A DNA stretch of 64,000 bases from an uncultured Eubacteriales bacterium (GTDB lineage: Bacteria > Bacillota > Clostridia > Lachnospirales > Lachnospiraceae): assembly GCA_900314565.1 (NCBI GenBank), contig OMVU01000006.1:66074-130073 (forward strand), read 5' to 3'. Below the pieces are notes generated by a model. The model did no database searches and was not told the DNA's origin. It saw nothing but the letters and a program-made list of their open reading frames with translations. The translations under genes were made by a program, and so were the position numbers. Every line of letters starts with the position of its first letter. The first letter of the stretch is position 1. This document shows positions 24,175-51,560 of the stretch, in pieces.

Positions 24175-25581
24175 TTACTTTCTGGACCACTTTACGCCCT
24201 GCTTCGTGTCCATGAGTTCGATGCCCATGGCCTTCAGCTGGTCGCGGATCTCATCCGCGCGGGCGAAGTTCCTTGCCTTGCGGGCGGCCTGACGCTCCTC
24301 GATGAGAGCTTCGATTCCTGCGTCGGGAATCTCCTTCTCCGGAAGCGCGATGATGCCGAGAATATCGCAGAGCATGGTGAGTACATCAAGTGTGCCCTGA
24401 GCCAGTGCCTTTGAGGCGGTCTCCGTGACGTTGGTGTTCGCGTAGCGCACAAGGTCGAAGATGACAGAGAGGGCGTCCGCCGTGTTGGCGTCGTCGTCCA
24501 TTTTCTCGTCAAAGCGGTCGACGTGGGCTTTGACTTCCGCGAGAATTTCATTTTCAGCAGGCTGAAGGTCCGTGACCGCCGCGGAAGCGGCGAGATCCGA
24601 GAGCCTGTCAGCGGCGCGGCGGATGCGCTCGAGTGAATTTCCGGCGGCTTCCATGAGATCGGCCGAGAAATTCAGCGGGCTTCTGTAGTGGGCGGACAGC
24701 ATGAAAATACGGAGGACCTGAAGGTCGTACTTCTCCGAAATGTCGCGCACGGTAAAGAAGTTGCCGAGAGACTTGGACATCTTCCTGTTGTCGATGTTCA
24801 GGAAGGCATTGTGCATCCAGTAGTTCGCGAAAATGTGGCCGGAGCAGCTTTCGGACTGGGCGATCTCATTTTCGTGATGCGGGAAGACCAGATCCTCGCC
24901 GCCGGCGTGGATATCGATCGACTCGCCCAGATACTTTTTGGACATGACGGAGCACTCAATGTGCCAGCCGGGCCTGCCGTCGCTCCACGGGGACGGCCAG
25001 GAGGGCTCGCCCTCCTTCTTCGGCTTCCAGAGTACGAAATCGAGCGGATCTTCCTTCTCATCCTCGCCGGAGACCTTGAGGTCGCGGAAGCCGGAGCGAA
25101 GGTCGTCCAGATTCTTGCCGGAGAGCTTGCCGTAGCCCGGGAAGCTTCTCGTGCGGAAGTAGACCGTGCCGTTCTTCTCATAGGCGTGGCCCTTTTCAAT
25201 CAGATCGGAGATCATGTCGATCATGCCGCCAATTTCCTGCGTTGCGAGCGGATGGGTGGTCGCCGGGCGGACGTTCATGCCTTCCATGTCCTTCTTGCAT
25301 TCTGCGATGTATCTCTGAGAAATGACATCCGCAGACACGCCCTCCTCGATGGCCGCCTTGATGATCTTGTCGTCGACGTCCGTGAAATTGGAAACATAGT
25401 TGACCTCATAGCCTTTATGTTCAAGATACCGGCGGACGGTGTCGAAGACGATCATGGGTCTCGCGTTTCCGATATGGATGAGGTTGTAAACGGTCGGGCC
25501 GCAGACGTACATACGTACCTTGCCGGGCTCGATCGGGACAAATTCTTCTTTGTGCATGGTGAGTGTATTGAAGATTTTCAT
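24175..25581 (-). CDS. cysS: Cysteinyl-tRNA synthetase
   Basis: [26 protein letters not shown] and KMSKS. Confidence 0.97.
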
Positions 25582-25772
25582 GGTATTCTATCCTTCCTGT
25601 GGGACGTTCTTTTTATTTGGAAAATGAAAGGCCTGCCGATTCGTCTGCCTGCACAATACCGGGCTGACAGGAGGCAAAGTCTTTTTGATCTGTGCCCTGA
25701 GACAGGACTCTGAGCGTTATCAATCTGCCGGCAGACCCGCTCTGTGCCGTAGGTGCTTAACGGGGATCCGGG

Positions 25773-26573
25773 TCAGATATAATCTGCAAATACGCAGTCT
25801 CCGACTTCCTCGTAATCCCGCTCTTCGGGTTTGAGCTCATAGTGCGTCTTCTCCCGCAGATAGGAGGATTCGCACAGGCGGTCGTTCTGCTTATCCTGCT
25901 TCCCGTCTTTTTCCTGTCTCATCCGGGAGAGCTCCGACTCGACGGAGATCATGCGGTTGATCAGCTCGTTGTTGGCTCTCTGAAGAAGCTTCAGATCCTG
26001 CAGGATCGGATCGGGCAGGTTCGTCTGATCGATCGTATCGCGCGGGATGACCTGGTTCTTCATGCGGACGACACGTCCGGGAACGCCGACGACGGTACAG
26101 TTGGGCGGAACCGGTTTCAGGACAACGGAGCCCGCACCGATCTTGGAATTCGCGCCGATCCGGATGGATCCCAGAACTTTTGCCCCGGCGGAGACCATCA
26201 CGCCGTCTTCAAGCGTCGGGTGGCGCTTTCCCTGTTCTTTTCCCGTACCTCCGAGCGTTACGCCCTGGTACAGGGTGACATTGTCACCGATTTCACAGGT
26301 CTCGCCGATGACGACACCGGTGCCGTGGTCAATGAAGAATCCCTTCCCGATGGTCGCACCGGGATGGATCTCGATGCCCGTCCTGCGGACGGCGATCTGA
26401 GAGAGCAGGCGTGCGCGGAAATGCTTTCCTTCCATCCAGAGCCTGTGGGCCTTTCTGTGATAGCGCATGGCTGTGTAACAGGGGTAAAGAAGGACATCCC
26501 AGTATGTGCGAATCGCGGGATCGCGTTCTTTATAGACTTGATAGGTCTCCTTCAGCTCTTTGTACCAGCCCAT
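25773..26573 (-). CDS. cysE: Serine O-acetyltransferase
   Basis: ATG 26573 with GGAGG; GIEIHPGA, FIDHGTGVVIGET, RHPT and VVGVPGR hexapeptide repeats. Confidence 0.93.
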   Translation of the reverse strand: MGWYKELKETYQVYKERDPAIRTYWDVLLYPCYTAMRYHRKAHRLWMEGKHFRARLLSQIAVRRTGIEIHPGATIGKGFFIDHGTGVVIGETCEIGDNVTLYQGVTLGGTGKEQGKRHPTLEDGVMVSAGAKVLGSIRIGANSKIGAGSVVLKPVPPNCTVVGVPGRVVRMKNQVIPRDTIDQTNLPDPILQDLKLLQRANNELINRMISVESELSRMRQEKDGKQDKQNDRLCESSYLREKTHYELKPEERDYEEVGDCVFADYI

Positions 26574-26620
26574 ATCAGCTCCTCCATGGTATTCGTCCGG
26601 ATTCGGAATCCGTTTTTTTA

Positions 26621-26648
26621 AGTCTATCAAAACTCGTCGGTTTGTCAA
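26621..26648 (-). promoter_or_regulatory. Putative sigma-A promoter for cysE(-cysS)
   Basis: Minus strand TTGACA-16 nt-TAGACT with an extended TG. Confidence 0.65.
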
Positions 26649-26766
26649 GTTTCACGGATGCAAACATGCAGGCAGTATTCAGTGGCATGCATCGCTCCGC
26701 CGGCAATCCCGGTACTGCGGCAGGAACGCCCCGCTGCCGTTCCGGAAGCGAGGCGCCCTGGTATGA

Positions 26767-26797
26767 GTATTCAGGAAAGCCGAAGCCTTTCTGAATA
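26767..26797. terminator. Hairpin downstream of the thioesterase gene
   Basis: TATTCAGGAAAGC-CGAA-GCCTTTCTGAATA imperfect stem; no strong U tract. Confidence 0.4.
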
Positions 26798-26872
26798 GTC
26801 ATATATAGGTTTTCCTGTCAGTCATACAGAGGATTACCGTTCAGATATTTATCAAATATGAGACGGGGACTG

Positions 26873-27613
26873 TCACATCCCCGTCAGCTTGATACGGAAT
26901 TTCGGCCTGTCGCTCCTCCCCTCAAAGAGCCAGGTCCCGTTCTCCGTCAGCCATGTGATCTCGAAATTCTCTCCTGCGCGGATCTCGCTCAGGTATTCCG
27001 CATCGACCGAGACAGGGTGCGATCGCTCATGGACGGAGAAGGGGATCAGGTCGTCCGTCAGATCGAAATAGCCGCAGTTATTGATGTGACCGTTAATGTC
27101 GAGCATGCTGAAAGAGGCGGTGCGCGGGACGGTACGGACCCGCGGATCTCCTGCCTCCGGAAGCCGTTCCCTGATGGTGGCGGGGAGCGGAAGAGCGTGT
27201 CCGGTGTTCATTTCCCCGATTTCGATTCCGTGCTCATCCGGGAAAATGAACCCCCTGCTCTCTGCGTCGATCAGCATCCAGAGCGCGCTGCCTGTGATGA
27301 TGACATCGCCGCCGCTGACGACTTCATAGAAACGCGGGAAGAGGACGTGCATCATCTCTCCCGGCCAGGAACGGATCGTGATCTCCTCATCGTACTCAGG
27401 CATACGCCGGATGTCGACGTGCTGCTTTGTGATGATCCAGAGAAGCCCCCGGTCGAGCGTTTTCTCCCGTCCCATGCCGAGAGCCTCCGTGTGTGCGATG
27501 GAAGCCTCCTGAAAGAATTCGAGCAGAACTGAGAGGCGGAGCCTGCGGCAGCACGTGACATGCTGGCTTCGGATCCGCAGCGTCCGCTCATAGGGCCCGA
27601 TGCTGCCTTCCAT
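26873..27613 (-). CDS. Acyl-ACP thioesterase (FatA/FatB-like double hot-dog)
   Basis: FFQEASIAH, W.I....VDI.RMP and DINGHINNCGY catalytic motif; GGAGG RBS. Confidence 0.88.
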   Translation of the reverse strand: MEGSIGPYERTLRIRSQHVTCCRRLRLSVLLEFFQEASIAHTEALGMGREKTLDRGLLWIITKQHVDIRRMPEYDEEITIRSWPGEMMHVLFPRFYEVVSGGDVIITGSALWMLIDAESRGFIFPDEHGIEIGEMNTGHALPLPATIRERLPEAGDPRVRTVPRTASFSMLDINGHINNCGYFDLTDDLIPFSVHERSHPVSVDAEYLSEIRAGENFEITWLTENGTWLFEGRSDRPKFRIKLTGM

Positions 27614-27625
27614 GTGATCCCTCCG

Positions 27626-27883
27626 TCAGTTTTTCTGATACTTCTCGATCGCGTCGACGACCTGACCGAGTGTCTTCAGCTTGTTCCACTGTCTGTTGGG
27701 GATCTTAACGTTGAACTCGGCTTCGAGCTTGCAGATGACCATGATAAAGCTCATGGAATCCATGGACATATCGGTGTTGACGACGGAAGCCTCCGTCAGC
27801 TCGACGCCCTGAAGCTCAGGGACGCAGTTGTGGATGATCTCTATCGTCTTCGCAGTGATCTCTGCTCTTGATAATTTTGCCAT
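27626..27883 (-). CDS. Acyl carrier protein
   Basis: 85 aa; MDSM phosphopantetheine serine and LEAEFNVKIP..TLGQVVD; GAGGAGA RBS before ATG 27883. Confidence 0.88.
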   Translation of the reverse strand: MAKLSRAEITAKTIEIIHNCVPELQGVELTEASVVNTDMSMDSMSFIMVICKLEAEFNVKIPNRQWNKLKTLGQVVDAIEKYQKN

Positions 27884-28059
27884 TACAGTATCTCTCCTCA
27901 TTATCTTTTTGTTTATCTGAGCGGTGCTGTTCGCATTCCGCGTGCGCTCCATGCGCATGCCGTGCTGCAGACCCCTTGCCCGGCATAAGGCTCATTTCCT
28001 GCCTGCCCGGTCTGCACGGGAAGTTCATTTCCTGCGGGCCGTACGTACCTCGTTGATGA

Positions 28060-29511
28060 TCAGACTGACTCGAACTCCCACCGTCTGATCTTTCCCGTCG
28101 CGGTCCTCGGAAGAGGTGTCTCCGCGTACAGAATGTAGTGAATATGCTGCCCGCGCGCAAGCGACTCGTTGAACTTGTCGAGGACCATGCGGTCGTGCTC
28201 CCTGATCTCTCCGGAATCTTCCTTACGATCCTTCGTCCCGACGACAAGGACCGGGAAGCCGTTCCGCAGGATGAGGGCAAGATCGTCCGTGCCGAGATCC
28301 TGCGCAAGTTTTCCCTCACATTCCGGCCGGTAGATCTTCGTCCCGTCCGAGAGGACGAGCATATCCTTCTTTCGGCCGGTCAGATGCAGATATCCGCGCT
28401 CGTCGAGAAAACCGAGGTCTCCCGTATAGAGCCGGCCGTCGATCGCAGGGTTCGAGACCTTTGCCTGAACGCCCGGTCTCGCCGTGGAAAAATCAATATA
28501 TCCCTTCATGAGACAGGGCGTTTTGACGCTCACTTCCCCGTCTTCCTCGATCCGTATATCCGCATCCGGGCAGGGAGCAAGCGCATAGGGATCCTCGAGG
28601 TCCTGCGTGATCGCGACGCCGCTTGAAGTCTCGGTCAGTCCGTAGCCCAGATAGACTTTAAGACCGGCCGCTTTGAGAGCACCTGTCACCTCCTGAGAGA
28701 GGGGAGCCGCGCCGATGAGGACCACTCTGAGCTCTTTGTTCAGGACCTGCTTGCGGTACAGGATCTCCATGAGCGAGGGGACGGCGGGAAGGATCGTCGG
28801 ATTGAAATATTTACAGTCGTCGAACATGTGGCGGACGCCCCGTCCAAGCGCGATCGCTGCCCCGTAGGCCAGTCCCCAGAGCATCGAGCACACAAAGCCG
28901 AAGACGTGGGAGAGAGGCAGCAGTGAGAGGATCACATCCCCCTCTCCGCAGGGGAGCATGGACTGTCCGGACCATGCGCTGAGACAGAGATTCCGGGTCG
29001 AAAGCACGACTGCCTTGGACTGGCTTGTCGTCCCTGACGTAAAGAAGATCAGGCGGCCTTCCCGTCCTTTCTTCGCGAACGGATCCGGGACTGCACCCGG
29101 GACAGGCTCCGCGTCCGGGTTCGGCGGAGCGGCCGGTATTCCGAGATGACTGCGGACAGCCTGCTCGAGGTCGCTGTCGCTTGCGTAGACGGAATCAGCA
29201 CCGCAGACGGATGCGAGATAAAAAAGCATCTCTTCCGAGAGAGCCTCATCCGTGAGGACCACATCACAGCCGGCACGCGCGCAGGCGAACAGGCGGATGA
29301 CCGTCTCCGGCCTGTGGTCGGTGATCATGAATTCACGCCGGATACCGGCGTCTTTTATTTTCCGGGAGAGCTCGAGGATCTGTTCGTTCAGATAGCTGTA
29401 CGACATTCTGACCGGTTCGTGACCATCGTCACCGCCGCTGTAGATCAGGGCGGGGTGAAAATTGTCTTTCCACGGTTCCATCAGTTCCCGGAAAGTTAAA
29501 TATTTATGCAT
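28060..29511 (-). CDS. AMP-binding (ANL) acyl-CoA/acyl-ACP synthetase
   Basis: FTSGTTSQSKAV, GYGLTET, YTGDLG, GRKKD and TGKIRR motifs. Confidence 0.88.
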   Translation of the reverse strand: MHKYLTFRELMEPWKDNFHPALIYSGGDDGHEPVRMSYSYLNEQILELSRKIKDAGIRREFMITDHRPETVIRLFACARAGCDVVLTDEALSEEMLFYLASVCGADSVYASDSDLEQAVRSHLGIPAAPPNPDAEPVPGAVPDPFAKKGREGRLIFFTSGTTSQSKAVVLSTRNLCLSAWSGQSMLPCGEGDVILSLLPLSHVFGFVCSMLWGLAYGAAIALGRGVRHMFDDCKYFNPTILPAVPSLMEILYRKQVLNKELRVVLIGAAPLSQEVTGALKAAGLKVYLGYGLTETSSGVAITQDLEDPYALAPCPDADIRIEEDGEVSVKTPCLMKGYIDFSTARPGVQAKVSNPAIDGRLYTGDLGFLDERGYLHLTGRKKDMLVLSDGTKIYRPECEGKLAQDLGTDDLALILRNGFPVLVVGTKDRKEDSGEIREHDRMVLDKFNESLARGQHIHYILYAETPLPRTATGKIRRWEFESV

Positions 29512-29527
29512 AAAAAACCTCCGAATA

Positions 29528-29556
29528 TTGCAGAAATCTTGTCACAATTATATAAT
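29528..29556 (+). promoter_or_regulatory. Putative sigma-A promoter for the PAI-like gene
   Basis: TTGCAG-17 nt-TATAAT. Confidence 0.65.
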
Positions 29557-29604
29557 GGAGAGGAAGAGTTTCCAATACTCATATTTATTAAAAATGTGAG
29601 AATG

Positions 29605-29790
29605 ATATATCTCAGTGTGAGATGACCCCCGCCTTTATAGGCGGGGGCAACAAACCATTCTCAGTGGCGGGTGTCAATCCCCCACTGAGATATACGCTCC
29701 GCGAGGATGCGCAGGGATTCGTTTTGGTATTATGTCAGCTGACGCTGACACGAATCCCGCGCCAAGTCTCGCGAGCGAGACTTGAAAAAA
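29605..29790 (+). repeat. Repeat family A (multi-hairpin, ~185 bp) copy 1
   Basis: Near-identical to 51377-51560; five hairpins, ending CAAGTCTCGC-GA-GCGAGACTTG-AAAAAA. Confidence 0.9.
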
Positions 29791-29801
29791 AGGAGCAGAA
29801 A

Positions 29802-31160
29802 ATGGCTAATCTGAACGAAAAAATCTGTATCATCGGCGGTGGTCCGGCAGGCCTTTCCGCGGCCATGTATCTTGAGCAGAAGGGCTATACCAACTACGCG
29901 ATCCTTGAAAAAGAAGATCATGTAGGCGGAAAATGCCACTCCCCGCATTACAACGGAAGAAGATATGAGATGGGCGCGATCATGGGTGTTCCTTCGTACT
30001 ATGCAGTGCATGATGTCGAGGAATTCTGCGGAATTACGCACGACGGACCGAAGCTGAACCGGAACTACAAGAACGGCAAGGGTCAGGTCATTGATCCGTT
30101 CAATCCGAAGAAGAACCCGCTCAAGATCCCGGAGCTCATGAAGATGAAAAAGCAGCTGAAGAAGCTGGGCGAACTCCTTGAGACGAAGTATAAGGGATAC
30201 GACGTCAACGGACACCGCGGCGTAGCGGAAGGACGCTATGACGGCTATGCGGTCACACCGGGCCGTGAGAAAATTTCCGGCGTGAACCCGAACCTGAAGG
30301 ATCTGGCGATGCCGTTCAAGGACTTCTGCGAAATGAACGGCGTTGAGCTCATCCAGAATATCTGGATCGGCCCGTTCACCTCATTCGGTTACGGATATTT
30401 TGATGAGATCCCGGCAGCGTATGTTCTGAAGTATCTTGACTTCCAGACGACCATGAACTTCGTCAAGGTCAATCTGTGGACCTGGAAGGAAGGAACACAG
30501 TACATCTGGGAACAGCTCAACGAGCACCTTGCACATCAGGCGAGACTCAACAGCGACATTACTTCTGTCGAGCGGAAGGACGGAAAGGTCTATGTGACCG
30601 TCAACGGCGAAGTCGAGGAATTCGACAAGGTCATCATCACAGCGCCGCTGCAGTTCATGCCGAAGTATTTCGATGCAACGGAAGAGGAGAAGGAACTCTT
30701 CTCGAAGATCGACTATGAGAGATATGACGTCCTCGCAGTCGAGACAGAGCCCCAGAATCATCCGGAGATCTCCTACTACATTTTCGACAATATGACCCCG
30801 GATCGGTACGGCCACCTGATGGTCTATTATCGCCGCTGGAAAGACGATATCAACCAGGTCATCACGACCTATGCACTGCGCAATCACCGCGGTGACCGCA
30901 GGATCTCAGTGAACGGCTGCCGCCGCAACGTGCTGAAGGACCTTGAGAAGATGGGCAACCCGGCATCTGAGGTCGTCAATGAGAAATCCTGGTACTACTT
31001 CCCGCACGTATTCTCCGAGGATTACGCGGCCGGCTGGTATGACAAGGTCGAGGCTATGCAGGGAACGAACGGAACGTACTATGCAGGCGAGATCATGTCG
31101 TTCGGTGATATGGATGAGACGGCCGAGTATTCCAGAGAACTTGTAGACAGATTCTTCTGA
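29802..31160 (+). CDS. Polyunsaturated fatty acid (linoleate) isomerase homologue, PAI family FAD enzyme
   Basis: AGGAG RBS before ATG 29802; 452 aa. Long near-identical stretches to the recalled C. acnes PAI sequence: HVGGKCHSP.Y.GRRYEMGAIMGVPSY, FGYG.FD..PAAYVLKYLDF, GH.MVYY.RW, WYYFPHV.SEDY.AGWY.KVE.MQG and YAGEIMSFG. Confidence 0.88.
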   Translation: MANLNEKICIIGGGPAGLSAAMYLEQKGYTNYAILEKEDHVGGKCHSPHYNGRRYEMGAIMGVPSYYAVHDVEEFCGITHDGPKLNRNYKNGKGQVIDPFNPKKNPLKIPELMKMKKQLKKLGELLETKYKGYDVNGHRGVAEGRYDGYAVTPGREKISGVNPNLKDLAMPFKDFCEMNGVELIQNIWIGPFTSFGYGYFDEIPAAYVLKYLDFQTTMNFVKVNLWTWKEGTQYIWEQLNEHLAHQARLNSDITSVERKDGKVYVTVNGEVEEFDKVIITAPLQFMPKYFDATEEEKELFSKIDYERYDVLAVETEPQNHPEISYYIFDNMTPDRYGHLMVYYRRWKDDINQVITTYALRNHRGDRRISVNGCRRNVLKDLEKMGNPASEVVNEKSWYYFPHVFSEDYAAGWYDKVEAMQGTNGTYYAGEIMSFGDMDETAEYSRELVDRFF

Positions 31161-31189
31161 TCGGAATAAGACGGCAGATCGTGCCGAAT

Positions 31190-31242
31190 ATGCGGCGGCG
31201 GCCTTCGGGTGCGCCGCCGCTTGTATACGTGAACCTTTTTGT
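31190..31242 (+). terminator. GC-rich hairpin after the PAI-like gene
   Basis: GCGGCGGCG...CGCCGCCGC stem; the T run is displaced by about 14 nt, so termination is uncertain. Confidence 0.4.
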
Positions 31243-31275
31243 GTGTATTATTTACGTGAGATTTTTTAGTAACTA

Positions 31276-31328
31276 AAACTTCACACATGTATTAACATGA
31301 CTGCGACCGGGAATAAATAATTTCCAAA
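31276..31328 (+). repeat. Repeat family B, left-arm fragment
   Basis: ATTAAC(A)TGACTGCGACCGGGAATAAATAATTTCCAAA shared with 5375 and 52394. Confidence 0.85.
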
Positions 31329-31350
31329 CTCACTAAACCTTATTTGCGAG

Positions 31351-32940
31351 GTGAAAAACATGAACTTTTACAAAGACCACTATGATGTCATCATCATGGG
31401 CGCGGGTCTTGCGGGACTCTCCTGTGCGCTGCAGCTGCAGTCGAGAGGAATCAAGGATATCCTGATCCTCGAAAAGCACAACCTGCCCGGCGGCCTCGCC
31501 ACGAGCTATGTCCGGAACGGGATCGAGATCGAGGCTACACTGCATGAGATGATGAGTATCGGAACGAAGGAGGACCGCCTGAAGGTCGGCGCGTTCTTCG
31601 ACGATATGGGTGTCGACATTGACTGGCTGCCCGTACCGGAGGCCTACCGTTTCCTGCAGACGACGGACGGCATCGACATCACCCTGCACGCGGGCTACCG
31701 CAGGATGGCGGATGAGATCGACGCGCAGTTCCCGGGCTGGGGAGACAAAGTCTACGAATTTATGCTGCTCATGAGAAGGGTCTACGACTCCATGAACATC
31801 CTCTCCGTGACGCCGATGAGCAAGCCGGAGATGCTCCTGAAGCACCCGGATTTCGTGAAAACGGTCGGGTACTCCGCGGAACAGGTCATGTCGACCTTTG
31901 AATTCCCGGACGAGATCGAGCAGATCCTCACACCCTACTGGATCTATGTCGGGAATCCGATGAATACCCTTCCCTTTACGATCTACGCATTCCTGATGGC
32001 GGACTACTTCTGCGGAAGCTATGTCGCGCACGGCCTTTCCCACGAGATGAGCATGAAGCTCGAGAAGAAGGCCGAGGAGAACGGAGCGCAGATCGAATTC
32101 CGCCAGGAAGTCGAAAAGATCCTTGTCCATAACGGCAGGGTGACGGGCGTCCGCACGAAGCGCGGCGATGAGATCGCCTGCGACTATGTCGTGAGCGCTG
32201 CCTACCCGAACAAGGTCTACACGCAGATGATCGAACCCCTCTCCGAGGTCCCGGAAGGCGCGATCAAAGCCGTCAATGCGAGAAATCTCAGCGTGTGTCC
32301 GGTCTCCGTCATGATGGTCCTCGACGGATCGCCCGAGGAGCTCGGGATCAGCGATTACAACATTTTCTCCGGCGATACCATGGACACCACGGAGATCTGG
32401 GATAATTATCATACGGCCGGACCGTACACCTATCTCACGTCCATCTGCCTGAACCTTGCAAATCCTGACTGCACGCCGGAGGGCATGTGCCAGTTCTCAA
32501 TCACCGCGCTGCCGCTCGTCGACTCCTTCCTCGACGTGAAGGAGGAGGATTATCCGGCACTCAAGCGAAAACTCGCGGCGGAAATGATCGCAAATTACGA
32601 GAAGAATACCGGCATCAATATCCACGACCACATCGTCGAGATCGAGGTCGAGACGCCGATCACGGTCGCGCATTACGTCGGCGCGTGGAAGGGCAGCATT
32701 TACGGATATGCCCACTGCATGGATGACCACGCGGTCGCCCGCCTCCAGATGAAGGCGGAGGATCATTTTATCAAGGGCCTTGAATTTGCGGGCGCGCACG
32801 GCATGTCCGGAAACGGCATGGGCCCGGCGGTCACCAACGGCCGCGCAGCAGCGAAGGGAATTCTGGAAGCCGAGGCGGCAAAAAACAAAAAGACGCCGGC
32901 TTCCGTCATCAAAAATCTGATCGGAGGTGCCGGAAAATGA
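31351..32940 (+). CDS. CrtI/phytoene desaturase-retinol saturase superfamily FAD oxidoreductase (COG1233)
   Basis: GAGLAGL, EKHNLPGG.ATS, TP.T..HY....KGSIYG and GLEFAGA..MSG.G; GTG 31351 or ATG 31360. Confidence 0.85.
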   Translation: MKNMNFYKDHYDVIIMGAGLAGLSCALQLQSRGIKDILILEKHNLPGGLATSYVRNGIEIEATLHEMMSIGTKEDRLKVGAFFDDMGVDIDWLPVPEAYRFLQTTDGIDITLHAGYRRMADEIDAQFPGWGDKVYEFMLLMRRVYDSMNILSVTPMSKPEMLLKHPDFVKTVGYSAEQVMSTFEFPDEIEQILTPYWIYVGNPMNTLPFTIYAFLMADYFCGSYVAHGLSHEMSMKLEKKAEENGAQIEFRQEVEKILVHNGRVTGVRTKRGDEIACDYVVSAAYPNKVYTQMIEPLSEVPEGAIKAVNARNLSVCPVSVMMVLDGSPEELGISDYNIFSGDTMDTTEIWDNYHTAGPYTYLTSICLNLANPDCTPEGMCQFSITALPLVDSFLDVKEEDYPALKRKLAAEMIANYEKNTGINIHDHIVEIEVETPITVAHYVGAWKGSIYGYAHCMDDHAVARLQMKAEDHFIKGLEFAGAHGMSGNGMGPAVTNGRAAAKGILEAEAAKNKKTPASVIKNLIGGAGK

Positions 32941-34118
32941 AAATAGACAGCTTCCTGAAAGACGTCGGCGGAGCCTCCAGAGTCACGAAGGCGCGCCGCA
33001 TGAGCTATAAGAACGCGAGTGCCATACCGCAGCCGAAGGATCCGATCCGTGAACTCGCTGACCTTCTGCATCCGGATAAGATGCGCTTTGTCGTCACGGA
33101 GGTGAGAGATGCCTCCCCGACCTCGAAGACCTTCCGTCTCGAGTCGGTCGACGGCCATATCCCGGTCTTCCAGTGCGGTCAGTACGTCAATTTCAATCTG
33201 AAGATCGGCGAAAGCGTCCTGAACAGGCCGTATTCCATCTCCTCGGCACCTTTTGAGGCGAGAGGGGAGAAACCCTTCATCGAGGTCACGATCCGGCGGA
33301 ACCGCCCGTATTTCGTGCCGGACTATTTCTTTGAAAATGTAACGGAAGGGACTCTGCTCGACGGCTCGATGCCTTTCGGGACATTTTACTATGAGCCGCT
33401 CAGGGATTCCAAAAATGTCGTCGCCCTCGCAGGCGGCAGCGGCATCACACCGTTCGTCTCGATGGCGAAGGAGATCGCCGCAGGATATCTTGATACGGAC
33501 CTCACGATCCTCTACGGATCCGTTCATCACAGCGATATCGTCTGCGGAGACGAACTTGCCAGGGCTGCAGCGGCCTGCCCGCGCGTCCGCGTCGTCAACG
33601 TAATGTCGGACGATCCGGAGTGGGAAGGCGAGAAGGGCTTTGTCACGAAGGAAATCATTGAGAAGTATTCCGGGGAGGATCCGACCTATATGTTCTGCGG
33701 TCCGCTCCCGATGTACAATTTTGTATCAAAAGTTCTCGGAGAGCTGGGCGTTCCGGTCCGCCGCTTCCGTAAGGATGTCCTCGGACAGCCGGCTGACATC
33801 AGCGCACTGCCCGGATATCCGGCGGAAAGCGTCGGAAAGACGTATCAGATCACGGTCGTCCGCGGTGTGCGCGAGGATGTTATTCCGGCAAGTGCGTCCG
33901 AGCCTGTAGCCGTCGCGCTGGAGAGAGCCGGGATCCCGGTCGACGCCCACTGCAGGGGCGGAGAATGCGGCTTCTGCAGGAGTCAGCTCCTCTCCGGCGA
34001 GATCTTCGTGAATCCGGTCGGGGACGGACGGCGTGCGATGGACAGGGAGATGGGCTGGTTCCATGCCTGCTCCTCCTATCCGCTGACGGACCTGAAAATC
34101 AAGATCCCGATCCTGTGA
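32937..34118 (+). CDS. FNR-type NAD(P)H:flavin reductase with C-terminal [2Fe-2S] ferredoxin
   Basis: RPYSISS (FAD), AGGSGITP (NAD), FCGP and CRGGECGFC..C cluster ligands; ATGA overlap with the upstream gene. Confidence 0.88.
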   Translation: MKIDSFLKDVGGASRVTKARRMSYKNASAIPQPKDPIRELADLLHPDKMRFVVTEVRDASPTSKTFRLESVDGHIPVFQCGQYVNFNLKIGESVLNRPYSISSAPFEARGEKPFIEVTIRRNRPYFVPDYFFENVTEGTLLDGSMPFGTFYYEPLRDSKNVVALAGGSGITPFVSMAKEIAAGYLDTDLTILYGSVHHSDIVCGDELARAAAACPRVRVVNVMSDDPEWEGEKGFVTKEIIEKYSGEDPTYMFCGPLPMYNFVSKVLGELGVPVRRFRKDVLGQPADISALPGYPAESVGKTYQITVVRGVREDVIPASASEPVAVALERAGIPVDAHCRGGECGFCRSQLLSGEIFVNPVGDGRRAMDREMGWFHACSSYPLTDLKIKIPIL

Positions 34119-34338
34119 AGACGGACCCGAGGATCAGAATTCTGATCCTGCGCTGACGGACCTGAGGATCAGACTTTCGATTCTTTAACGTGCTGCGGCA
34201 GCCCCGAGGCTGCCGCAGAGCGCGCAGGACGGAGGATCCTTTCATTTACGGTTCAGAAAAAGACGCCTGCAAAACTCTGTGCGATAGAAGAACAGTGTTT
34301 CGCAGGCGCTCTGTGGCTCAGAAAGGTATGCTTAAGAT

Positions 34339-37164
34339 ATGGTAAAAGATGTAAATCCCATGATTCACGTCAACGAACGTGATTTCCCGGTCACGGATTA
34401 TCACTGTAACGATCCGGAAAAGAAAAAGCTTGTCATGAAGCTCGCGCTCATGATCACGGACAACATTCCGCGGAAGCTCCCGGGAGGAATGAAAGAGAAT
34501 CACATGGACTTCTGGATCCTCGACAGGCTCCTTACCAAAGAGGAAGTCCGCTTTATGCTCAGCTTTAAGAAGAGAAGAGTCGGGCTGACGACACGCGAGC
34601 TCGCGGTCCGCAACAAGATGAGCATGCAGAGAACGCAGAAAATGATCGATCACCTTCTGTGGATCGGCATTCTGGAACAGAACCGTGACAACGCGGATCA
34701 CCATATCCAGTATCTTATCCCGAAATGGGTCGTCGGATCGGGCGAATACATGGTCGAGCACCCGACACTCCCGGACGAGCATCCGGAGGTCGCGACGATG
34801 TTCAACCTCGCGCCGCAGGAGCCGCTGGAGCTTGCGGCCAAGCTCATCCCGCCGGGAGGAGCAGGCATCGGCATGCATGTCATTCCTGTGGAGAAGGCGA
34901 TCCCGGTCGACACGAAGAGCGTTTCCGTGGAGCACCTGTCCCACTGGATTCAGAAATACGACACCTTCTGCAAGATGGTCTGCGCGTGCAGAAAGGCGCA
35001 GAGGATCCGCGGGGAGGGTGTCGGAGACATCGAAGGCTACATGTGTATCGGCTGCGGCGACATCGCGGAGTATCTCGTAACGTCCGGCAAGGACGCGGTG
35101 TACATCACGAAGGAGGAGGTCCTTGAGATCCTCGAGAGGGCAGAGCGCAAGGGCTACGTCCATCAGATCACGAATCTGGACGGACCGAACCGCATCGTCG
35201 GCATCTGCAACTGCTCTCCGGGAAGCTGCTACGGCCTCCGCACATCGCAGCTCTTCAACACGCCGAATATGTCCCGCTCTGCTTACCGCGCCCACGTCGA
35301 TCACACGAAATGCGTGGCCTGCGGCAAGTGCGTCGAGGTATGTCCGGCCGGTGCCGCAAAGCTCGGCCAGAAGCTGTGCCGGGCGGACGGCTCGAAGGTC
35401 GTTTATCCGATGCATGACCTCCCGGATGACAATCCGTGGGGCGAAGATCGCTGGGACAGAGATTATCGTGATCACAATAAGATCAACTGCTACGACGAGG
35501 GAACATCCCCGTGCAAGACGGCTTGTCCTGCCCATCTTGCGGTCCAAGGCTATGTCCGGATGGCTGCCGAAGGCCGCTATCAGGATGCGCTCCGTCTGAT
35601 CCGTCAGGACAATCCGTTCCCGGCAGTATGCGGCGCAGTCTGCAACCGGCGCTGCGAGGACCGCTGCACGAGAGGCCTCGTCGACAAGCCGGTGGCCATC
35701 GACGAGATCAAGAAATTTCTTGCTTACCGTGAGCTGGATGCGGGCGAGCGCTACATCCCGATCTGCGAGAACGGTGACGGAAATCAGTGGGATGACTACA
35801 GGATCGCTGTGATCGGCGCGGGTCCGGCAGGACTCACGGCTGCCTACTATCTGCGGACCGAGGGATACCCTGTCACGGTCTTTGAGCGTGAGGCGCGTCC
35901 GGGCGGCATGCTGATGAACGGCATTCCGAACTTCCGTCTCGACAAGAAGGTCCTTCAGGCTGAGATCGATATCATTGAGAAGATGGGCGTCGAGATCCGC
36001 TGCGGCGTTGAGGTCGGTAAGGACGTGACGATCGGGGAGCTGAGAGAGCAGGGGTACAAGGCATTTTACGTTGCGATCGGTCTGCAGGGCGGCCGCCTGG
36101 CAGGCGTTCCCGGCGAGGACGCAGCGGGCGTGGAGTCCGGCGTGAGCTTCCTGCGCAGAGTCAATCAGGATCATACGATCCGCCTTGACGGTGACGTCGT
36201 GGTCGTCGGCGGCGGAAATGTCGCAGCCGACGTCGCCCGCGCGGCAAAGCGCACGACAGACGGTAAGGTCACAATGCTCTGCCTCGAACAGCGCGATGAG
36301 ATGCCCGCCGCAAAGGATGAGATTGCGGAAGTCCTGGAAGAGAATATTGTGATCATGAACGGCTGGGGCCCGAAGGAAGTCATCGCAGAGGACGGGAAGG
36401 TCACGGCGATCGTCTTTAAGAAATGTGTCTCCGTCTTTGACAGTGAGCATCGCTTCAGCCCGGTCTATGATGAAAATGAAACCATCACAGTTCCCTGCGC
36501 CAATGTGCTCATGGCGATCGGCCAGTCCGCGGAGTGGGGAAATCTGCTCGACGGCACGAAAGTGGAAGTCCGCAGAAACGGTACGGCTGTCGCGGACAGC
36601 GTGACACTGCAGACAGCGGAGCCGGATATCTTCGTCGGCGGAGATATTTATCACGGGGCAAGATTTGCGATCGACGCGATCGCGGAAGGCAAGGAGGGAA
36701 TGGTCTCCATCAACCGCTTTGTCCATCCGGGTCAGTCGCTCACGATCGGAAGGGATCTTCGCCAGTTCATTGAACTTGACCGCGACGATATCCTCATCGA
36801 GTCCTATGACAATGCGGATCGTCAGGCTCCGGGCATGCGTCCGGGCGATCCGGATAAGACATTTGAGGACCTCAGACTTCCGCTCACCGAGGAGCAGGTC
36901 AAAGTCGAGGCAAACAGGTGCTTGAAATGCGGTGCCACCACCGTCGACCTCAATCAGTGCGTCGGCTGCGGCCTGTGCACGACCAGGTGTGAATTCGACG
37001 CGATCCATCTCTCGAGAGATATTCCGGAGGCGAGCGAGATGCATACCGCGGAGGAGATGATGAAGGTCGTCGGTCCGTATGCGGCAAAGCGCGCAGTGAA
37101 GATCATGAAGAAGAAGCTTACGGAGAAGAAGGACGCGAAGAAGGCCGGCACTGAGAAGTCATAA
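34339..37164 (+). CDS. Large Fe-S flavoprotein: 4Fe-4S dicluster + GltD-like pyridine nucleotide-disulfide oxidoreductase + C-terminal ferredoxin
   Basis: CVACGKCVEVCP, PCKTACP..NPFP..CGAVCNRRCE, GAGPAGL, GGGNVAAD, FVGGD, RCLKC and CVGCGLCTTRC. Confidence 0.88.
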   Translation: MVKDVNPMIHVNERDFPVTDYHCNDPEKKKLVMKLALMITDNIPRKLPGGMKENHMDFWILDRLLTKEEVRFMLSFKKRRVGLTTRELAVRNKMSMQRTQKMIDHLLWIGILEQNRDNADHHIQYLIPKWVVGSGEYMVEHPTLPDEHPEVATMFNLAPQEPLELAAKLIPPGGAGIGMHVIPVEKAIPVDTKSVSVEHLSHWIQKYDTFCKMVCACRKAQRIRGEGVGDIEGYMCIGCGDIAEYLVTSGKDAVYITKEEVLEILERAERKGYVHQITNLDGPNRIVGICNCSPGSCYGLRTSQLFNTPNMSRSAYRAHVDHTKCVACGKCVEVCPAGAAKLGQKLCRADGSKVVYPMHDLPDDNPWGEDRWDRDYRDHNKINCYDEGTSPCKTACPAHLAVQGYVRMAAEGRYQDALRLIRQDNPFPAVCGAVCNRRCEDRCTRGLVDKPVAIDEIKKFLAYRELDAGERYIPICENGDGNQWDDYRIAVIGAGPAGLTAAYYLRTEGYPVTVFEREARPGGMLMNGIPNFRLDKKVLQAEIDIIEKMGVEIRCGVEVGKDVTIGELREQGYKAFYVAIGLQGGRLAGVPGEDAAGVESGVSFLRRVNQDHTIRLDGDVVVVGGGNVAADVARAAKRTTDGKVTMLCLEQRDEMPAAKDEIAEVLEENIVIMNGWGPKEVIAEDGKVTAIVFKKCVSVFDSEHRFSPVYDENETITVPCANVLMAIGQSAEWGNLLDGTKVEVRRNGTAVADSVTLQTAEPDIFVGGDIYHGARFAIDAIAEGKEGMVSINRFVHPGQSLTIGRDLRQFIELDRDDILIESYDNADRQAPGMRPGDPDKTFEDLRLPLTEEQVKVEANRCLKCGATTVDLNQCVGCGLCTTRCEFDAIHLSRDIPEASEMHTAEEMMKVVGPYAAKRAVKIMKKKLTEKKDAKKAGTEKS

Positions 37165-37185
37165 TACACAGAGCTTTTCTGATTC

Positions 37186-37265
37186 AAGAACGCCTCAGCG
37201 TTCTTGCCGCGCCGCGCATGGTGCGAAGCACCTTCCACTTTGCGCGGCTGCGATCCGCCGGAGGC
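37186..37265 (+). repeat. Repeat family D (80 bp REP-like) copy
   Basis: AAGAACGCCTCAGCGTTCTTGCCGCGCCGCGCA.GGTGCGAAGCACCTTC...TTTGCGCGGCTGCGATCCGCCGGAGGC; nearly identical to 50263-50342. Confidence 0.9.
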
Positions 37266-37266
37266 G

Positions 37267-37325
37267 TTTATCTCAGTGGCCTTCCCCCGCTTATAGAAGC
37301 GGGGATCTTCCCCACTGAGATAAAT
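37267..37325. repeat. Family-A-related nested hairpin
   Basis: TATCTCAGTGG...CCCCGCTTATAGAAGCGGGG...CCACTGAGATA shares arms with family A. Confidence 0.65.
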
Positions 37326-37386
37326 AACAGCCTCGATCTATCGGATTTTCAGATTGCAGATGTAGTGGGATTTGCATACTGTTATT

Positions 37387-37428
37387 AAAAATAAGACCCG
37401 GGCTTTTCGAAGCCCGGGTCTTTGTTTC
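37387..37428. terminator. Bidirectional intrinsic terminator
   Basis: AAGACCCGGGCTT-TTCG-AAGCCCGGGTCTT-TGTTT. Confidence 0.8.
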
Positions 37429-37477
37429 ATGTGCTGAAATGAACAGTCTGTTCTTCTGCACTCTGTGCAGCTGGTTC

Positions 37478-38836
37478 TCACTTACTGAACACGTGCCAGA
37501 CGCCGTCTTTCAGCGCGTAGATACAATCATAGGCGCTCTCGATCTTCTCCCATTTATGCTCCAGGATCTGTTTCCCGTCGAAGAGCTCATATGCGCCGTA
37601 CAGTTTAGTGTTTTCATCCCGGGCATAAATCATTCCGGTGCCGAGGCTGCCGATGCTTTTCTTGTCGGTCAGATCCAGTGTCTTACCGGTGTTCAGGATC
37701 AGGTATTTGCCCTTCTCAATATCCTCACACAGCCCGGAGTTCGGAGATCCTTCGATCTTGTCGCTGATTATGTGCCCGTCCGGTGCGATCAGCAGAGTGG
37801 TCTTGCTTCCGGATTGTTCTTTTGCATACAGATATCCTTCACTCAATTCGGAAATCGAGTAATACTTCGGTTCAAAAATCACTTTGCCGGATTTATCTGT
37901 AAGGCCGTAGAGATAGTTTCCGGCCTCATCTTTCAGAGTTGTCTTAAGGAGGCCGTTTCCGATGAGATCAGGTGTATTTTGGTAAGCCGGCTCCACAAGA
38001 ATCTTCCCGTCATATGTCATGACACCGTACAGACCGTTGTCTCCTTTGAAACCAAGAAGGCCGTCCCCGATGATCATCCCTTCCTTTTCGCTCTCCGCGA
38101 CCTGCTTCATAGTATCGTCATAGTAGAAGGTCTTTCCGTCCTTATACGAGTAATAAAAGCCTCTTTTTACCATACCCAGTCTGGATGCATCGTCCGCGAG
38201 CACCTTGCCGGATGCGTCGAGGACACGGGGGGTGTTCTCCCGGTCATTTGCGACATAACTCACACCGCAGACTGCAAACGATTGTTTGGGATCTGTGAAG
38301 ACATAGTCCGTGAGCAGCTTTTCGCCATCCACATCGAACAGCTGCTTTCTGCCTTTAAAAAGAACATCTTTGTCATCAGGAAAGCCGACCGTGAACATAT
38401 CCGCAGAGACGTACATCATGGCCTCGTCCTTGTTATCCGTCTGCTCCTCCCCGAAGATCACCTGGAGGTAGTGCTCGTTTTCCACGTCAATCACACAGAG
38501 GGACCAGGGGATCAGCATCGTTCCGTCAGTATTCACGACACAGCTCTCCGGAACCTCCGCACCCTGGCGGTCAAGCTCCCAGAGATCGCCTGTGAGGTGT
38601 TTGCATCGGGAGAAAAGCAGATCCGGGAATTCCTTTCCGTCCGGATCGCAGAACATCTTCTGTTCGCCTTTATCCTTATATATAAGAGGGGCATTGATGC
38701 CCTCGAATCTCAGATCTCCTCCTGCGTCCTTGATCTGTTTCTCTTCCTTCAGAACGGGCTTCCCGGCAGCGAATACGCTGCTGCTTCCGATGAGCATGGA
38801 GATAATGAGGCCGGCAGCTAGTAATGTTCGTTTCAC
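37478..38836 (-). CDS. Secreted WG-repeat-like (beta-propeller-type) protein
   Basis: GTG 38836 with AAGGAGG; signal peptide; repeats such as NGLYGVMTYDGKILVEPAY and YLYGLTDKSGKVIFEPKY. Confidence 0.7.
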   Translation of the reverse strand: MKRTLLAAGLIISMLIGSSSVFAAGKPVLKEEKQIKDAGGDLRFEGINAPLIYKDKGEQKMFCDPDGKEFPDLLFSRCKHLTGDLWELDRQGAEVPESCVVNTDGTMLIPWSLCVIDVENEHYLQVIFGEEQTDNKDEAMMYVSADMFTVGFPDDKDVLFKGRKQLFDVDGEKLLTDYVFTDPKQSFAVCGVSYVANDRENTPRVLDASGKVLADDASRLGMVKRGFYYSYKDGKTFYYDDTMKQVAESEKEGMIIGDGLLGFKGDNGLYGVMTYDGKILVEPAYQNTPDLIGNGLLKTTLKDEAGNYLYGLTDKSGKVIFEPKYYSISELSEGYLYAKEQSGSKTTLLIAPDGHIISDKIEGSPNSGLCEDIEKGKYLILNTGKTLDLTDKKSIGSLGTGMIYARDENTKLYGAYELFDGKQILEHKWEKIESAYDCIYALKDGVWHVFSK

Positions 38837-38956
38837 AATTTCCCTCCTTATTGAACTTGCAGCTCCTTTGAAGTGACCAAAGCAGTTGAAACAATGAGTT
38901 GAACTATATGGCATTTTCTGCTTATTGAGTGTACGTGAGTATTGTGCGATGAAGAT

Positions 38957-39140
38957 TCAGGAACGCCTCAGCGTTCCTGCCGCACCGCGCTTATGTGCGA
39001 AGCACCTTCCTCGCGCCAGATATCGGACTTCTGCTAGTTCCTGCCGCACTGCGCAGGAGCGAAGCACCTTCCTCGCGCCAGATATCGGCCTTCCGCTTGT
39101 TCCTGCCGCACCGCGCAGGGCTCAAAGCATCTTCCTCGCG
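38957..39140 (+). repeat. Tandem x3 (~62-64 bp) degenerate family D units
   Basis: GTTCCTGCCGCAC...GAAGCACCTTCCTCGCGCCAGATATCGG units start at 38973, 39037 and 39099. Confidence 0.85.
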
Positions 39141-43090: not shown

Positions 43091-43293
43091 AAAAATGAGA
43101 GGAAAACAGATTTTTGTTTCTGAATATCCTGCTGAAACAGAATTTCCTGAGGAACAAAAGAAGAATACCAAATGTAAGCGGGACTTTGTTATAATTATAT
43201 AAGAATTATTTCGGATCTTGCTTATGAAAGAGCTGTCCGGATCCTGTCGGTCTCTGCGTTAAGACACTGTCTTCGCAAAGAACCCGCCTTCAT

Positions 43294-43473
43294 GTCCGGA
43301 GACCTGTCCGGAAAATTGTCCGGAGACCTGATCGGAGACTTGATCAGAGACCTGTCCGGAAAATTGTCTGGAGACCTATCCGGAAAATTGTCCGGAGACC
43401 TGATCGGAGACTTGATCAGAGACCTGTCCGGAAAATTGCCCGGCGACCTGTATGGAAAACTGTCTGGAGAGAC
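43294..43473 (+). repeat. 12-bp tandem repeat x15 with a 72-bp higher-order period
   Basis: GTCCGGAGACCT / GTCCGGAAAATT / GATCGGAGACTT units. Confidence 0.9.
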
Positions 43474-43477
43474 GCCT

Positions 43478-51099: not shown

Positions 51100-51376
51100 T
51101 GGATTTTCCTCCGGAAAGAAATCTCATCTCCGGCGCAGATTTCCCGTGATTTTACCGGTGAGATAAATGCGCACAGTGATATCAAAGAGTATGCACCAAA
51201 CGGGCGGTATTTTTCAAGTGCCCAGTCAGGAATGTCCGGGCGTTCCTGCCACTTCATGGGAGTGTATGGGAACGTAGAGGTCTCCATGACCTGTGGCGCG
51301 GCTCTTCCTGCGTCATGCGGAGTGCACAGCGCGTCATGAACATGGAGTATAAGCGGAATGCGAACAGCACCGCTCA

Positions 51377-51560
51377 ATATATCTCAGTGTGAGATGCCCC
51401 CGCCTCTATAGACGGGGCAACAAACCAGTCTCAGTGGCGGGTGTCAATCCCCCACTGAGATATACGCTACGCGAGGATGCGCAGGGATTCGTTTCGGTAT
51501 TAAGTCAGCTGACGCTGACACGAATCCCGCGCCAAGTCTCGCGAGCGAGACTTGAAAAAA
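51377..51560 (+). repeat. Repeat family A copy 2
   Basis: Near-identical to 29605-29790. Confidence 0.9.

Follow-up and report, generated by a model that had tools for sequence, protein, structure and literature searches.

Ruminal biohydrogenation sets the amounts of polyunsaturated, conjugated and trans fat in milk and meat. Its trans-10 branch leads to milk-fat depression, which is costly in dairying, and the responsible organisms and genes are disputed. The stretch of DNA analysed here (the window) comprises 64,000 nucleotides from an uncultured Lachnospiraceae bacterium (assembly GCA_900314565.1, contig OMVU01000006.1, positions 66,074 to 130,073 of the forward strand), and a first-pass annotation of its sequence described the gene at 29,802 to 31,160 as a close homologue of PAI, the isomerase of Cutibacterium acnes that forms conjugated linoleic acid (CLA) of the trans-10,cis-12 type (t10,c12-CLA). 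This raises the question of whether the gene, here called PAIh, belongs to the PAI family, and in which pathway its product would work.

In reviews, PAI is still treated as an isolated 'group I' enzyme (PMC13365329). C. acnes has been judged unlikely to be the main trans-10 agent in vivo (PMC9853040), and the organisms behind the trans-10 shift are described as unresolved (PMC9853040; PMC11770317). A paper from 2024 says that t10,c12-CLA-forming rumen laboratory strains were lacking at the time and describes the isolation of one, C. acnes AP1 (PMC11770317). A study from 2023 compared PAI by BLAST with cow rumen metagenomes and reported seven metagenome-assembled genomes (MAGs) 'with PAI', two of them assigned to the Lachnospiraceae, one to the Oscillospiraceae and four left unclassified; one of the seven, a Lachnospiraceae MAG, correlated with t10,c12-CLA in milk (PMC10019597). 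That study gives no biochemistry, insertion, phylogeny or gene cluster, and literature searches, in which it was the one related report to turn up, gave no published description of the PAIh cluster. The bare homology is already in print; what is new here is a PAI-family enzyme with a conserved insertion inside a conserved redox cluster linked to an acyl carrier protein (ACP).

PAIh as a member of the PAI family

PAIh (29,802-31,160, plus strand) encodes a flavoprotein of 452 residues, and its assignment to the PAI family draws on homology to the PAI structure 2b9w, a fold model and conserved residues. The reading frame is open across all 452 codons, with the ribosome-binding site AAAGGAG 7 nucleotides 5' of the ATG. 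A longer frame from an in-frame ATG at 29,622 was rejected as the start: homologues begin at MANLNEK or MDKN, the equivalent of 29,802, and the extra 60 codons cross an inserted repeat element.

Among PDB sequences searched with phmmer, C. acnes PAI (2b9w) is the sole strong match (E 1.8e-143). The match is full length, covering PAI residues 6-423, and falls into two blocks, in which residues 5-139 of PAIh pair with 6-134 of PAI and residues 166-452 with 139-423. All remaining PDB matches have E values of at least 5e-8 and are confined to the N-terminal Rossmann motif of about 60 residues. Across about 422 aligned positions PAIh and PAI share 52-53% global identity, so that the word 'close' is somewhat generous. 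The FAD motif GxGxxG lies at residues 12-17, and the sequence IIGGGPAGLSAAMYLE...ILEKEDHVGGK follows the pattern GxGxxG ... E ... GGK. Of the Pfam models, NAD_binding_8 matches at 7.9e-12 and, at superfamily level, Amino_oxidase (PF01593) at 4.4e-25. The MCRA model PF06100 reaches 16.2 bits against a cut-off of 23, in a Rossmann match of 52 residues (6-57); the first-pass annotation had noted that PAI is unrelated to the MCRA/oleate-hydratase 'linoleate isomerases' usual in gut Firmicutes.

An AlphaFold2 model of PAIh, built on 32 homologues, has a mean pLDDT of 79.6 and a pTM of 0.85. In a fold search with this model, 2b9w came first (E 1.7e-46, TM 0.85/0.90, root-mean-square deviation 3.0), with the three-domain fold of PAI, and the next match was CpaO at TM 0.68. 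A role of PAIh as a flavin amine oxidase or protoporphyrinogen oxidase of the ordinary kind is very hard to credit. The PF01593 match would fit, as would the name 'protoporphyrinogen oxidase' given by JGI to several homologues. However, the amine oxidases in the PDB match only the first 60 residues or so (E about 5e-8) and reach a TM of at most 0.68 against 0.85-0.90 for PAI, PAIh scores 29-44 bits with protoporphyrinogen oxidase models, the cut-offs of which lie at 98-560, and the neighbours of PAIh are fatty-acid enzymes. The first-pass annotation had pointed to amine oxidases as the family with which the protein might instead be placed; PAI ranks first by sequence and by structure.

The alignment with PAI also bears out, exactly as first described, the conservation of three residues. 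These are Arg88 (GPKLRR in PAI, GPKLNR in PAIh, where it is Arg87), Phe168 (TAFGYG and TSFGYG; Phe195 in PAIh) and Phe193 (MMSFAK and TMNFVK; Phe220 in PAIh), while Arg87 of PAI is replaced by Asn. R87, F195 and F220 of PAIh are invariant across the 32 homologues. Their equivalents are kept in every aligned long form, that is, with the extra segment discussed below, and in nearly all of the short-form relatives shown; Phe168, which is also kept in most distant outgroups, is weakly diagnostic. We take Arg88 and Phe193 to be channel-gate and carboxylate residues of PAI and Phe168 to be a pocket residue, roles that were reportedly described by Liavonchanka et al. in 2006 and 2009. PAI takes only free fatty acids (PMC5442254), and its mechanism is FAD-stabilised and ionic, via a transiently reduced flavin (PMC13076199).

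Sequence and model together support the view that PAIh is a PAI-family flavoenzyme that keeps the presumed pocket and gate residues and is not an MCRA/oleate hydratase. The earlier claim of a PAI homologue with its key residues in a Clostridia genome thus holds for sequence, predicted fold and residue alignment, and the assignment to the Clostridia agrees with the title of a 99%-identical locus (L001, 'uncultured Clostridia bacterium SRR873600_bin.3'). A recent foreign origin of the gene in this genome was rejected, since its GC content at third codon positions is host-like (0.70; host range 0.61-0.79). Plasmid carriage was likewise rejected: tblastn against PLSDB gave only a 30% match from Photobacterium.

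Distribution in the rumen

PAIh is not an isolated oddity of one Clostridia genome but belongs to a widespread and highly conserved rumen family. In a set of 5.8 billion proteins, 1260 relatives were found at E ≤1e-10, and relatives occur in the genomes of 414 GTDB species. A scan of 1.84 billion cluster representatives revealed one tight family, consisting of PAI and the rumen clade, around which stand 291 representatives at E ≤1e-30 that are mostly 30-48% identical. Locus comparisons were made on the 80 best loci, 76-99% identical to PAIh, the large majority of which are labelled as MAGs from ruminant guts (cattle, sheep, goat, buffalo, deer and reindeer). Their taxa are Lachnospiraceae, Solobacterium/Erysipelotrichaceae, Oscillospiraceae/Ruminococcaceae and Coriobacteriia, with one cultured carrier among them, Curtanaerobium respiraculi; the family members in these taxa are given as 76-87% identical. 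DNA of the window itself is present in bovine and goat gut metagenome runs. The locus supplies a PAI-family enzyme that hundreds of rumen species carry and that is seen in rumen RNA runs, together with all of its candidate partner genes and at least one cultured carrier.

The gene cluster around PAIh

Three genes follow PAIh on the plus strand. The first (31,360-32,940) encodes a CrtI-like FAD protein of 526 residues, a putative saturase (reductase) of the conjugated acid, that matches PF01593, TIGR02734 and the PDB entries 4rep and 4dgk; the ATG at 31,360, with the ribosome-binding site GAGGTG, is a likelier start than the GTG at 31,351. A homologue search with this protein led to MAG proteins only, all of them without a name or named in generic terms. 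The second (32,937-34,118), the start of which overlaps the CrtI-like stop codon in the sequence ATGA, encodes an FNR-type reductase of 393 residues with FAD_binding_6, NAD_binding_1 and C-terminal 2Fe-2S ferredoxin domains; it resembles BenC and NADH-oxidoreductase models at scores below their cut-offs. The third (34,339-37,164) encodes a 941-residue Fe-S flavoprotein with 4Fe-4S domains and a C-terminal GltD-like NAD(P)H/FAD module, in which the N-terminal 310 residues or so have no Pfam match.

Divergent from PAIh, on the minus strand, are genes for an AMP-binding ligase of 483 residues (28,060-29,511), a putative fatty acyl-ACP synthetase; a dedicated ACP of 85 residues (27,626-27,883); and an acyl-ACP thioesterase of 246 residues (26,873-27,613) with FatA/B-type N- and C-terminal domains (PF01643, 2.7e-19; PF20791, 1.6e-8). 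The ACP has the phosphopantetheine-attachment motif DSM and matches PP-binding/ACP models, below the NCBIfam cut-offs, and its homologues are about 82-86 residues long.

The PAIh cluster is a grouping defined in this analysis and not a published family: it consists of PAIh and five core neighbours in the order ligase-ACP-thioesterase <> PAIh-CrtI-like-FNR, all of which the window contains in this order and orientation. Neighbours were counted by tblastn of the window proteins against the 80 loci, with only loci of at least 3.5 kb of flank counted. Ligase, ACP and thioesterase are present in 63 of the 68 loci with an upstream flank, the CrtI-like and FNR genes in 59 of the 63 with a downstream flank, and all five in 50 of the 57 with both. 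Gene calls on independent contigs gave the same architecture, and all-against-all clustering of open reading frames (ORFs) revealed no further widely conserved neighbour. The 941-residue flavoprotein, a frequent companion of the cluster, is found no more than 8 kb away in 26 other loci, where it is as conserved as PAIh (median 79% identical to the window), and it also adjoins short-form clusters. For PAIh the median identity of the other loci to the window is 78%, compared with 60% for the CrtI-like protein, 54% for FNR, 53% for the ACP, 44% for the thioesterase and 41% for the ligase, and therefore PAIh evolves far slower than its five core partners.

The cluster is present in rumen RNA data. 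At least 14 bovine rumen metatranscriptome runs carry 69-92% of the sampled 31-letter words of PAIh, and in four of these runs the whole cluster is tiled by contigs that are at least 95% identical. Contigs from RNA runs bridge PAIh and the CrtI-like gene (30,828-32,084 and 31,034-31,480) and the CrtI-like and FNR genes (31,466-33,868). Over PAIh, contigs are about 2-8 times as deep as over the downstream genes, a ratio that conserved stretches from other species may raise. Just 3' of the PAIh stop codon, a GC-rich hairpin is followed by a T-rich tract (31,192-31,220, plus strand), possibly a partial terminator; RNA contigs span it, which indicates read-through.

Two settings of the cluster differ from that of the window. 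In C. respiraculi SWB101512 (Coriobacteriia; locus L056, 3500-9360), the ligase, ACP and thioesterase genes are accompanied by a GntR/FCD regulator and a 76%-identical PAIh; no CrtI-like/FNR pair lies within 8 kb, and nitrogenase-like genes (NifH/NifD-type) are found downstream. In one Lachnospiraceae-type lineage (loci L088 and L089, 1-5240), the cluster adjoins genes for RnfC, D, G and E, ApbE and a member of PF07456, the heptaprenyl diphosphate synthase component I family. The proximity of the Rnf genes may be a coincidence or a hint at electron supply.

A proposed pathway

In our judgement PAIh is probably a cytoplasmic, FAD-dependent isomerase of polyunsaturated fatty acids that opens a self-contained, ACP-linked biohydrogenation and detoxification module of rumen Firmicutes and Coriobacteriia. 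The analysis shows the homology, the fold, the conserved residues, the conserved cluster, the habitat and the occurrence in contigs from rumen RNA runs; the substrate of PAIh, the regiochemistry of its product, the order of the steps and the role of the CrtI-like reductase are what we infer in the following scheme. The substrates would be dietary C18 polyunsaturated fatty acids freed by rumen lipolysis, linoleic and probably also linolenic acid. By analogy with PAI, the conserved Arg87 (Arg88 of PAI) would grip the free carboxylate at the channel mouth, and oxidised FAD would remove a hydride from the bis-allylic C11 and give it back to a neighbouring carbon, resulting in a conjugated diene, most probably trans-10,cis-12. 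PAIh would be the first cistron of a PAIh/CrtI-like/FNR-2Fe2S operon, paired with the divergent ligase/ACP/thioesterase operon. The free acid would first be isomerised by PAIh, after which the ligase would load the conjugated acid onto the dedicated ACP. The CrtI-like flavoenzyme would then saturate one double bond, with electrons from NAD(P)H passing via the FNR-type 2Fe-2S protein, joined by the GltD-like Fe-S flavoprotein in those clusters that have it, and the thioesterase would finally free the product. A step on the ACP is proposed because ligase, ACP and thioesterase together would otherwise form a futile cycle. The layout resembles acyl-ACP desaturation in plant plastids, with its ferredoxin-dependent enzyme and FatA/B thioesterase, here in the reductive direction.

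The electron-transfer proteins could also be read in another way, in which PAIh, supplied with electrons by the FNR-type and GltD-type proteins, is not redox-neutral and performs a net reduction or desaturation of an acyl double bond, the CrtI-like protein for its part carrying out, say, a cis/trans isomerisation like that of CRTISO. Two electron-transfer proteins are conserved beside two flavoproteins of the amine-oxidase fold, and PAI chemistry itself passes through a transiently reduced flavin (PMC13076199). The CrtI family includes isomerases that require reduced FAD, and the carotenoid isomerase model TIGR02730 is the second best for the CrtI-like neighbour. We nevertheless regard this as quite improbable: a proven isomerase that shares the presumed gate residues is 52% identical to PAIh, and some genomes carry PAIh without the reductases.

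A second alternative retains the isomerase and changes its specificity: PAIh might, for example, make cis-9,trans-11 CLA or turn α-linolenic acid into conjugated trienes, in which case the cluster would supply the mainstream trans-11 machinery of rumen biohydrogenation and not the trans-10 side route. The family is spread very widely, its expression is seen in ordinary rumen samples, and the long forms are a distinct clade (100% bootstrap) with a 24-residue insertion in the substrate-domain region and Arg87 replaced by Asn. To our knowledge, no genes have ever been assigned to the Butyrivibrio-type isomerase and CLA reductase. Against this, the presumed pocket residues are unchanged, no Butyrivibrio record occurs among the named matches to PAIh or to the CrtI-like neighbour, and the sole published correlation is with t10,c12-CLA (PMC10019597); we hold such a change of specificity to be rather unlikely.

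Several points weigh against a trans-10 isomerase at the head of an ACP-linked module. Regiochemistry is not readable from sequence at 52% identity, and the model has pLDDT values below 50 at residues 186-198 and 212-223, around the equivalents of Phe168 and Phe193. The trans-11 route normally dominates in the rumen, and hundreds of species making t10,c12-CLA would make the trans-10 route dominant. We know of no biochemistry for any family member but C. acnes PAI. The normal dominance of trans-11 is touched on in the literature (PMC9853040). The CrtI-like protein scores below every curated family cut-off (TIGR02734 crtI_fam, 124 bits against 238), which makes its reductase role a guess. The two modules are also separable: loci L019 and L056 have ligase, ACP and thioesterase with no CrtI/FNR pair nearby, L023, L044 and L054 have CrtI/FNR without ligase, ACP and thioesterase nearby, and L028 and L031 have neither. 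Finally, the depth of contigs is a crude gauge of expression, and DNA may be present in the RNA runs.

The ACP-linked trans-10 module could, more tentatively, have a wider meaning. It is conceivable, though we would not count on it, that the PAIh cluster holds the long-missing genes for ruminal biohydrogenation in uncultured Lachnospiraceae, Oscillospiraceae, Erysipelotrichaceae and Coriobacteriia, with a soluble flavin isomerase and an ACP-tethered, CrtI-type 'CLA reductase' fed by FNR-2Fe2S, the long form setting the trans-10 versus trans-11 outcome and milk-fat depression. The cluster is in any case a testable candidate for a rumen biohydrogenation pathway that is still without genes.

The extra segment

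PAIh differs from PAI in an extra segment at residues 139-164 or thereabouts (RGVAEGRYDGYAVTPGREKISGVNPN; 30,216-30,293, plus strand), which appears as a gap in the alignment with C. acnes PAI. Residues R139-N164 stand opposite the four-residue PAI loop Y-NKVH, so the insertion reported before is real, with a net gain of about 24 residues in place of the 22 or so first estimated. Within the segment or flanking it, H138, R139, G140, G144, R145, Y146, G148, P153, R155, G160, N162 and L165 are invariant in the 32 homologues. AlphaFold2 models the segment, which follows the long helix 106-127, as a beta-hairpin with strands at 145-150 and 157-161 (pLDDT about 85), and its net charge, counted from the sequence, is about +1.

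The first-pass annotation suggested that the insertion might mediate contact with the ACP or the reductase. This would suit a pathway in which the ligase loads linoleate first and PAIh isomerises the chain on the cluster ACP, with the hairpin helping the ACP to dock. PAIh and the ligase, ACP and thioesterase genes persist without nearby CrtI-like and FNR genes in L019 and L056 (with the GntR/FCD regulator between), and the hairpin is strongly conserved, with three invariant Arg residues. On the other hand, the Arg that we take to bind the free carboxylate is invariant. PAI accepts only free acids (PMC5442254), the net charge of the hairpin segment is low, short forms without the hairpin occur in the same ACP cluster, and two hairpin-bearing distant proteins (P0124 and P0126) have no such cluster visible on their short contigs. 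Isomerisation on the ACP thus appears doubtful, and isomerisation of the free acid by PAIh is preferred. The short forms, which share the same ACP/reductase cluster, weaken the suggested contact, and together with P0124 and P0126 they make a role of the hairpin as an adaptor for ACP or reductase unlikely. That the hairpin is so strongly conserved still speaks for some function, which might lie in substrate access, oligomerisation or product specificity.

The Oscillospiraceae-type homologues P0076, P0086 and P0121 have a further insertion, specific to their lineage, of about 10 residues near the position of PAIh residue 285 (for example YVADGNMGNNNGMVDYF / HIPGTRADGQRGMDEYF), which is absent from PAIh.

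Evolution of PAI and PAIh

A search with PAI as query revealed short-form relatives of 419-429 residues without the segment, 51-64% identical to PAI. Three of these (P0274, P0276 and P0281), 58-61% identical to PAIh, 54-64% identical to PAI and devoid of the hairpin, stand in the same cluster as PAIh, in the same order and orientation. Short-form clusters (L081, L083, L084 and L087) usually have a TetR regulator directly after FNR, unlike the cluster in the window, which is without TetR, and the large Fe-S flavoprotein is often present in them. More distant proteins (P0124, P0126 and P0131; 40-48% identity by phmmer) have a homologous segment and have lost the equivalent of Phe168.

In neighbour-joining trees with 300 bootstraps, the long-form rumen clade has 100% support, the grouping of PAI with P0274 and P0275 74%, and that of the long forms with P0124, P0126 and P0131 61%; PAI is never the sister of the long forms (0 of 300). 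A deletion of the segment in PAI, which a neighbour-joining tree of few taxa with PAI as sister of the long forms had suggested, was rejected, as the result was reversed once the short-form relatives were added. The best reading of the segment is a single gain in the ancestor of the group formed by the long forms and P0124, P0126 and P0131, a node with only 61% support.

The upstream flank of C. acnes PAI, the side examined, has genes for a TetR regulator, a carboxylesterase, an acetyltransferase and two hypothetical proteins, and no ligase, ACP or thioesterase gene. The transfer from actinobacteria to Clostridia that the first-pass annotation proposed to check by phylogeny is not indicated: PAI groups with short-form Firmicutes enzymes (74%), and the upstream half of the cluster is absent in C. 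acnes. PAI looks like an orphan derivative because it groups with cluster-borne short-form enzymes of Firmicutes, and the most economical reading would be that the cluster-borne enzyme is ancestral in Firmicutes, that C. acnes PAI is its stand-alone derivative and that the long-form lineage acquired the hairpin once. The textbook PAI would then be a pared-down branch of an enzyme that belongs to a Firmicutes pathway.

About 1.7 kb upstream of PAI, the C. acnes contig (L085, 574-1770) carries the carboxylesterase/lipase-type gene, together with the TetR gene. The proximity of this gene would fit a role in freeing fatty acids for PAI on skin.

Comparison with known systems

C. acnes PAI and PAIh have in common the fold, the family, the FAD motif and Arg88, Phe168 and Phe193. 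They differ in the hairpin of about 24 residues, the change of Arg87 to Asn and the cluster setting, and the activity of PAIh is a prediction. The habitat of PAIh and the proposed logic of an isomerase followed by a reductase are shared with the linoleate isomerase and CLA reductase of Butyrivibrio fibrisolvens. The B. fibrisolvens isomerase is particulate and makes cis-9,trans-11 CLA, in which it differs from what is proposed for PAIh.

The CLA-HY/CLA-DH/CLA-DC/CLA-ER saturation pathway of Lactobacillus plantarum and the MCRA/oleate-hydratase 'linoleate isomerases' share the overall task proposed for the PAIh cluster, in which a gut bacterium turns linoleic acid, by way of conjugated intermediates, into more saturated products (cited in PMC10019597 and PMC13365329). 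The proteins are unrelated, however, and neither a hydratase nor a short-chain dehydrogenase, a decarboxylase-like isomerase or an enone reductase is encoded in the PAIh cluster. In addition, the L. plantarum pathway uses free acids via hydroxy and oxo intermediates, whereas an ACP is involved in the PAIh cluster. With the CrtI/CRTISO family, the CrtI-like neighbour aligns end to end (crtI_fam, carotenoid isomerase models, 4rep and 4dgk), but it scores far below the cut-offs, has no carotenoid genes nearby, and has an FNR-2Fe2S partner in an anaerobe.

The PAIh leader and other features of the window

The PAIh leader contains a structured repeat element of 175 bp (29,611-29,785, plus strand), between the shared promoter region and the ribosome-binding site. 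L001, a MAG locus of the same species, lacks this element in an intergenic region that is near-identical in all other respects. The region 29,600-29,801, in which the element lies, folds at -96.7 kcal/mol (z = -9.1). A riboswitch or other leader upstream of PAIh was considered and rejected: Rfam at E ≤1 over 25,000-39,000 gave nothing relevant, and the structured region is the inserted repeat. Further copies are found at about 37,268-37,325 and 51,370-51,490 of the window. The element is GC-rich, about 120-175 bp long and built of nested palindromes (...TCTCAGTGG...CCCCGCCTTTATAGGCGGGG...CCCCACTGAGATA), and the 13-mer CCCCACTGAGATA occurs three times in the window against 0.09 expected. In contigs from rumen RNA runs, the repeat spots have 85-900x k-mer depth and many diverging contigs, as for a multi-copy element of the MITE/REP-like kind (miniature inverted-repeat transposable or repetitive extragenic palindromic elements) or an abundant small RNA.

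Further downstream (43,292-46,036), an ORF of 914 residues has at its start a repeat of short period (SGDLSGKLSGDLIGDLIRDL, two copies). Inspected by eye, it goes on with a protein-kinase-like region, low-complexity Gly/Gln/Ser/Thr/Pro sequence and three C-terminal repeats similar to one another (…YLTLR…A…YVN..Y…).

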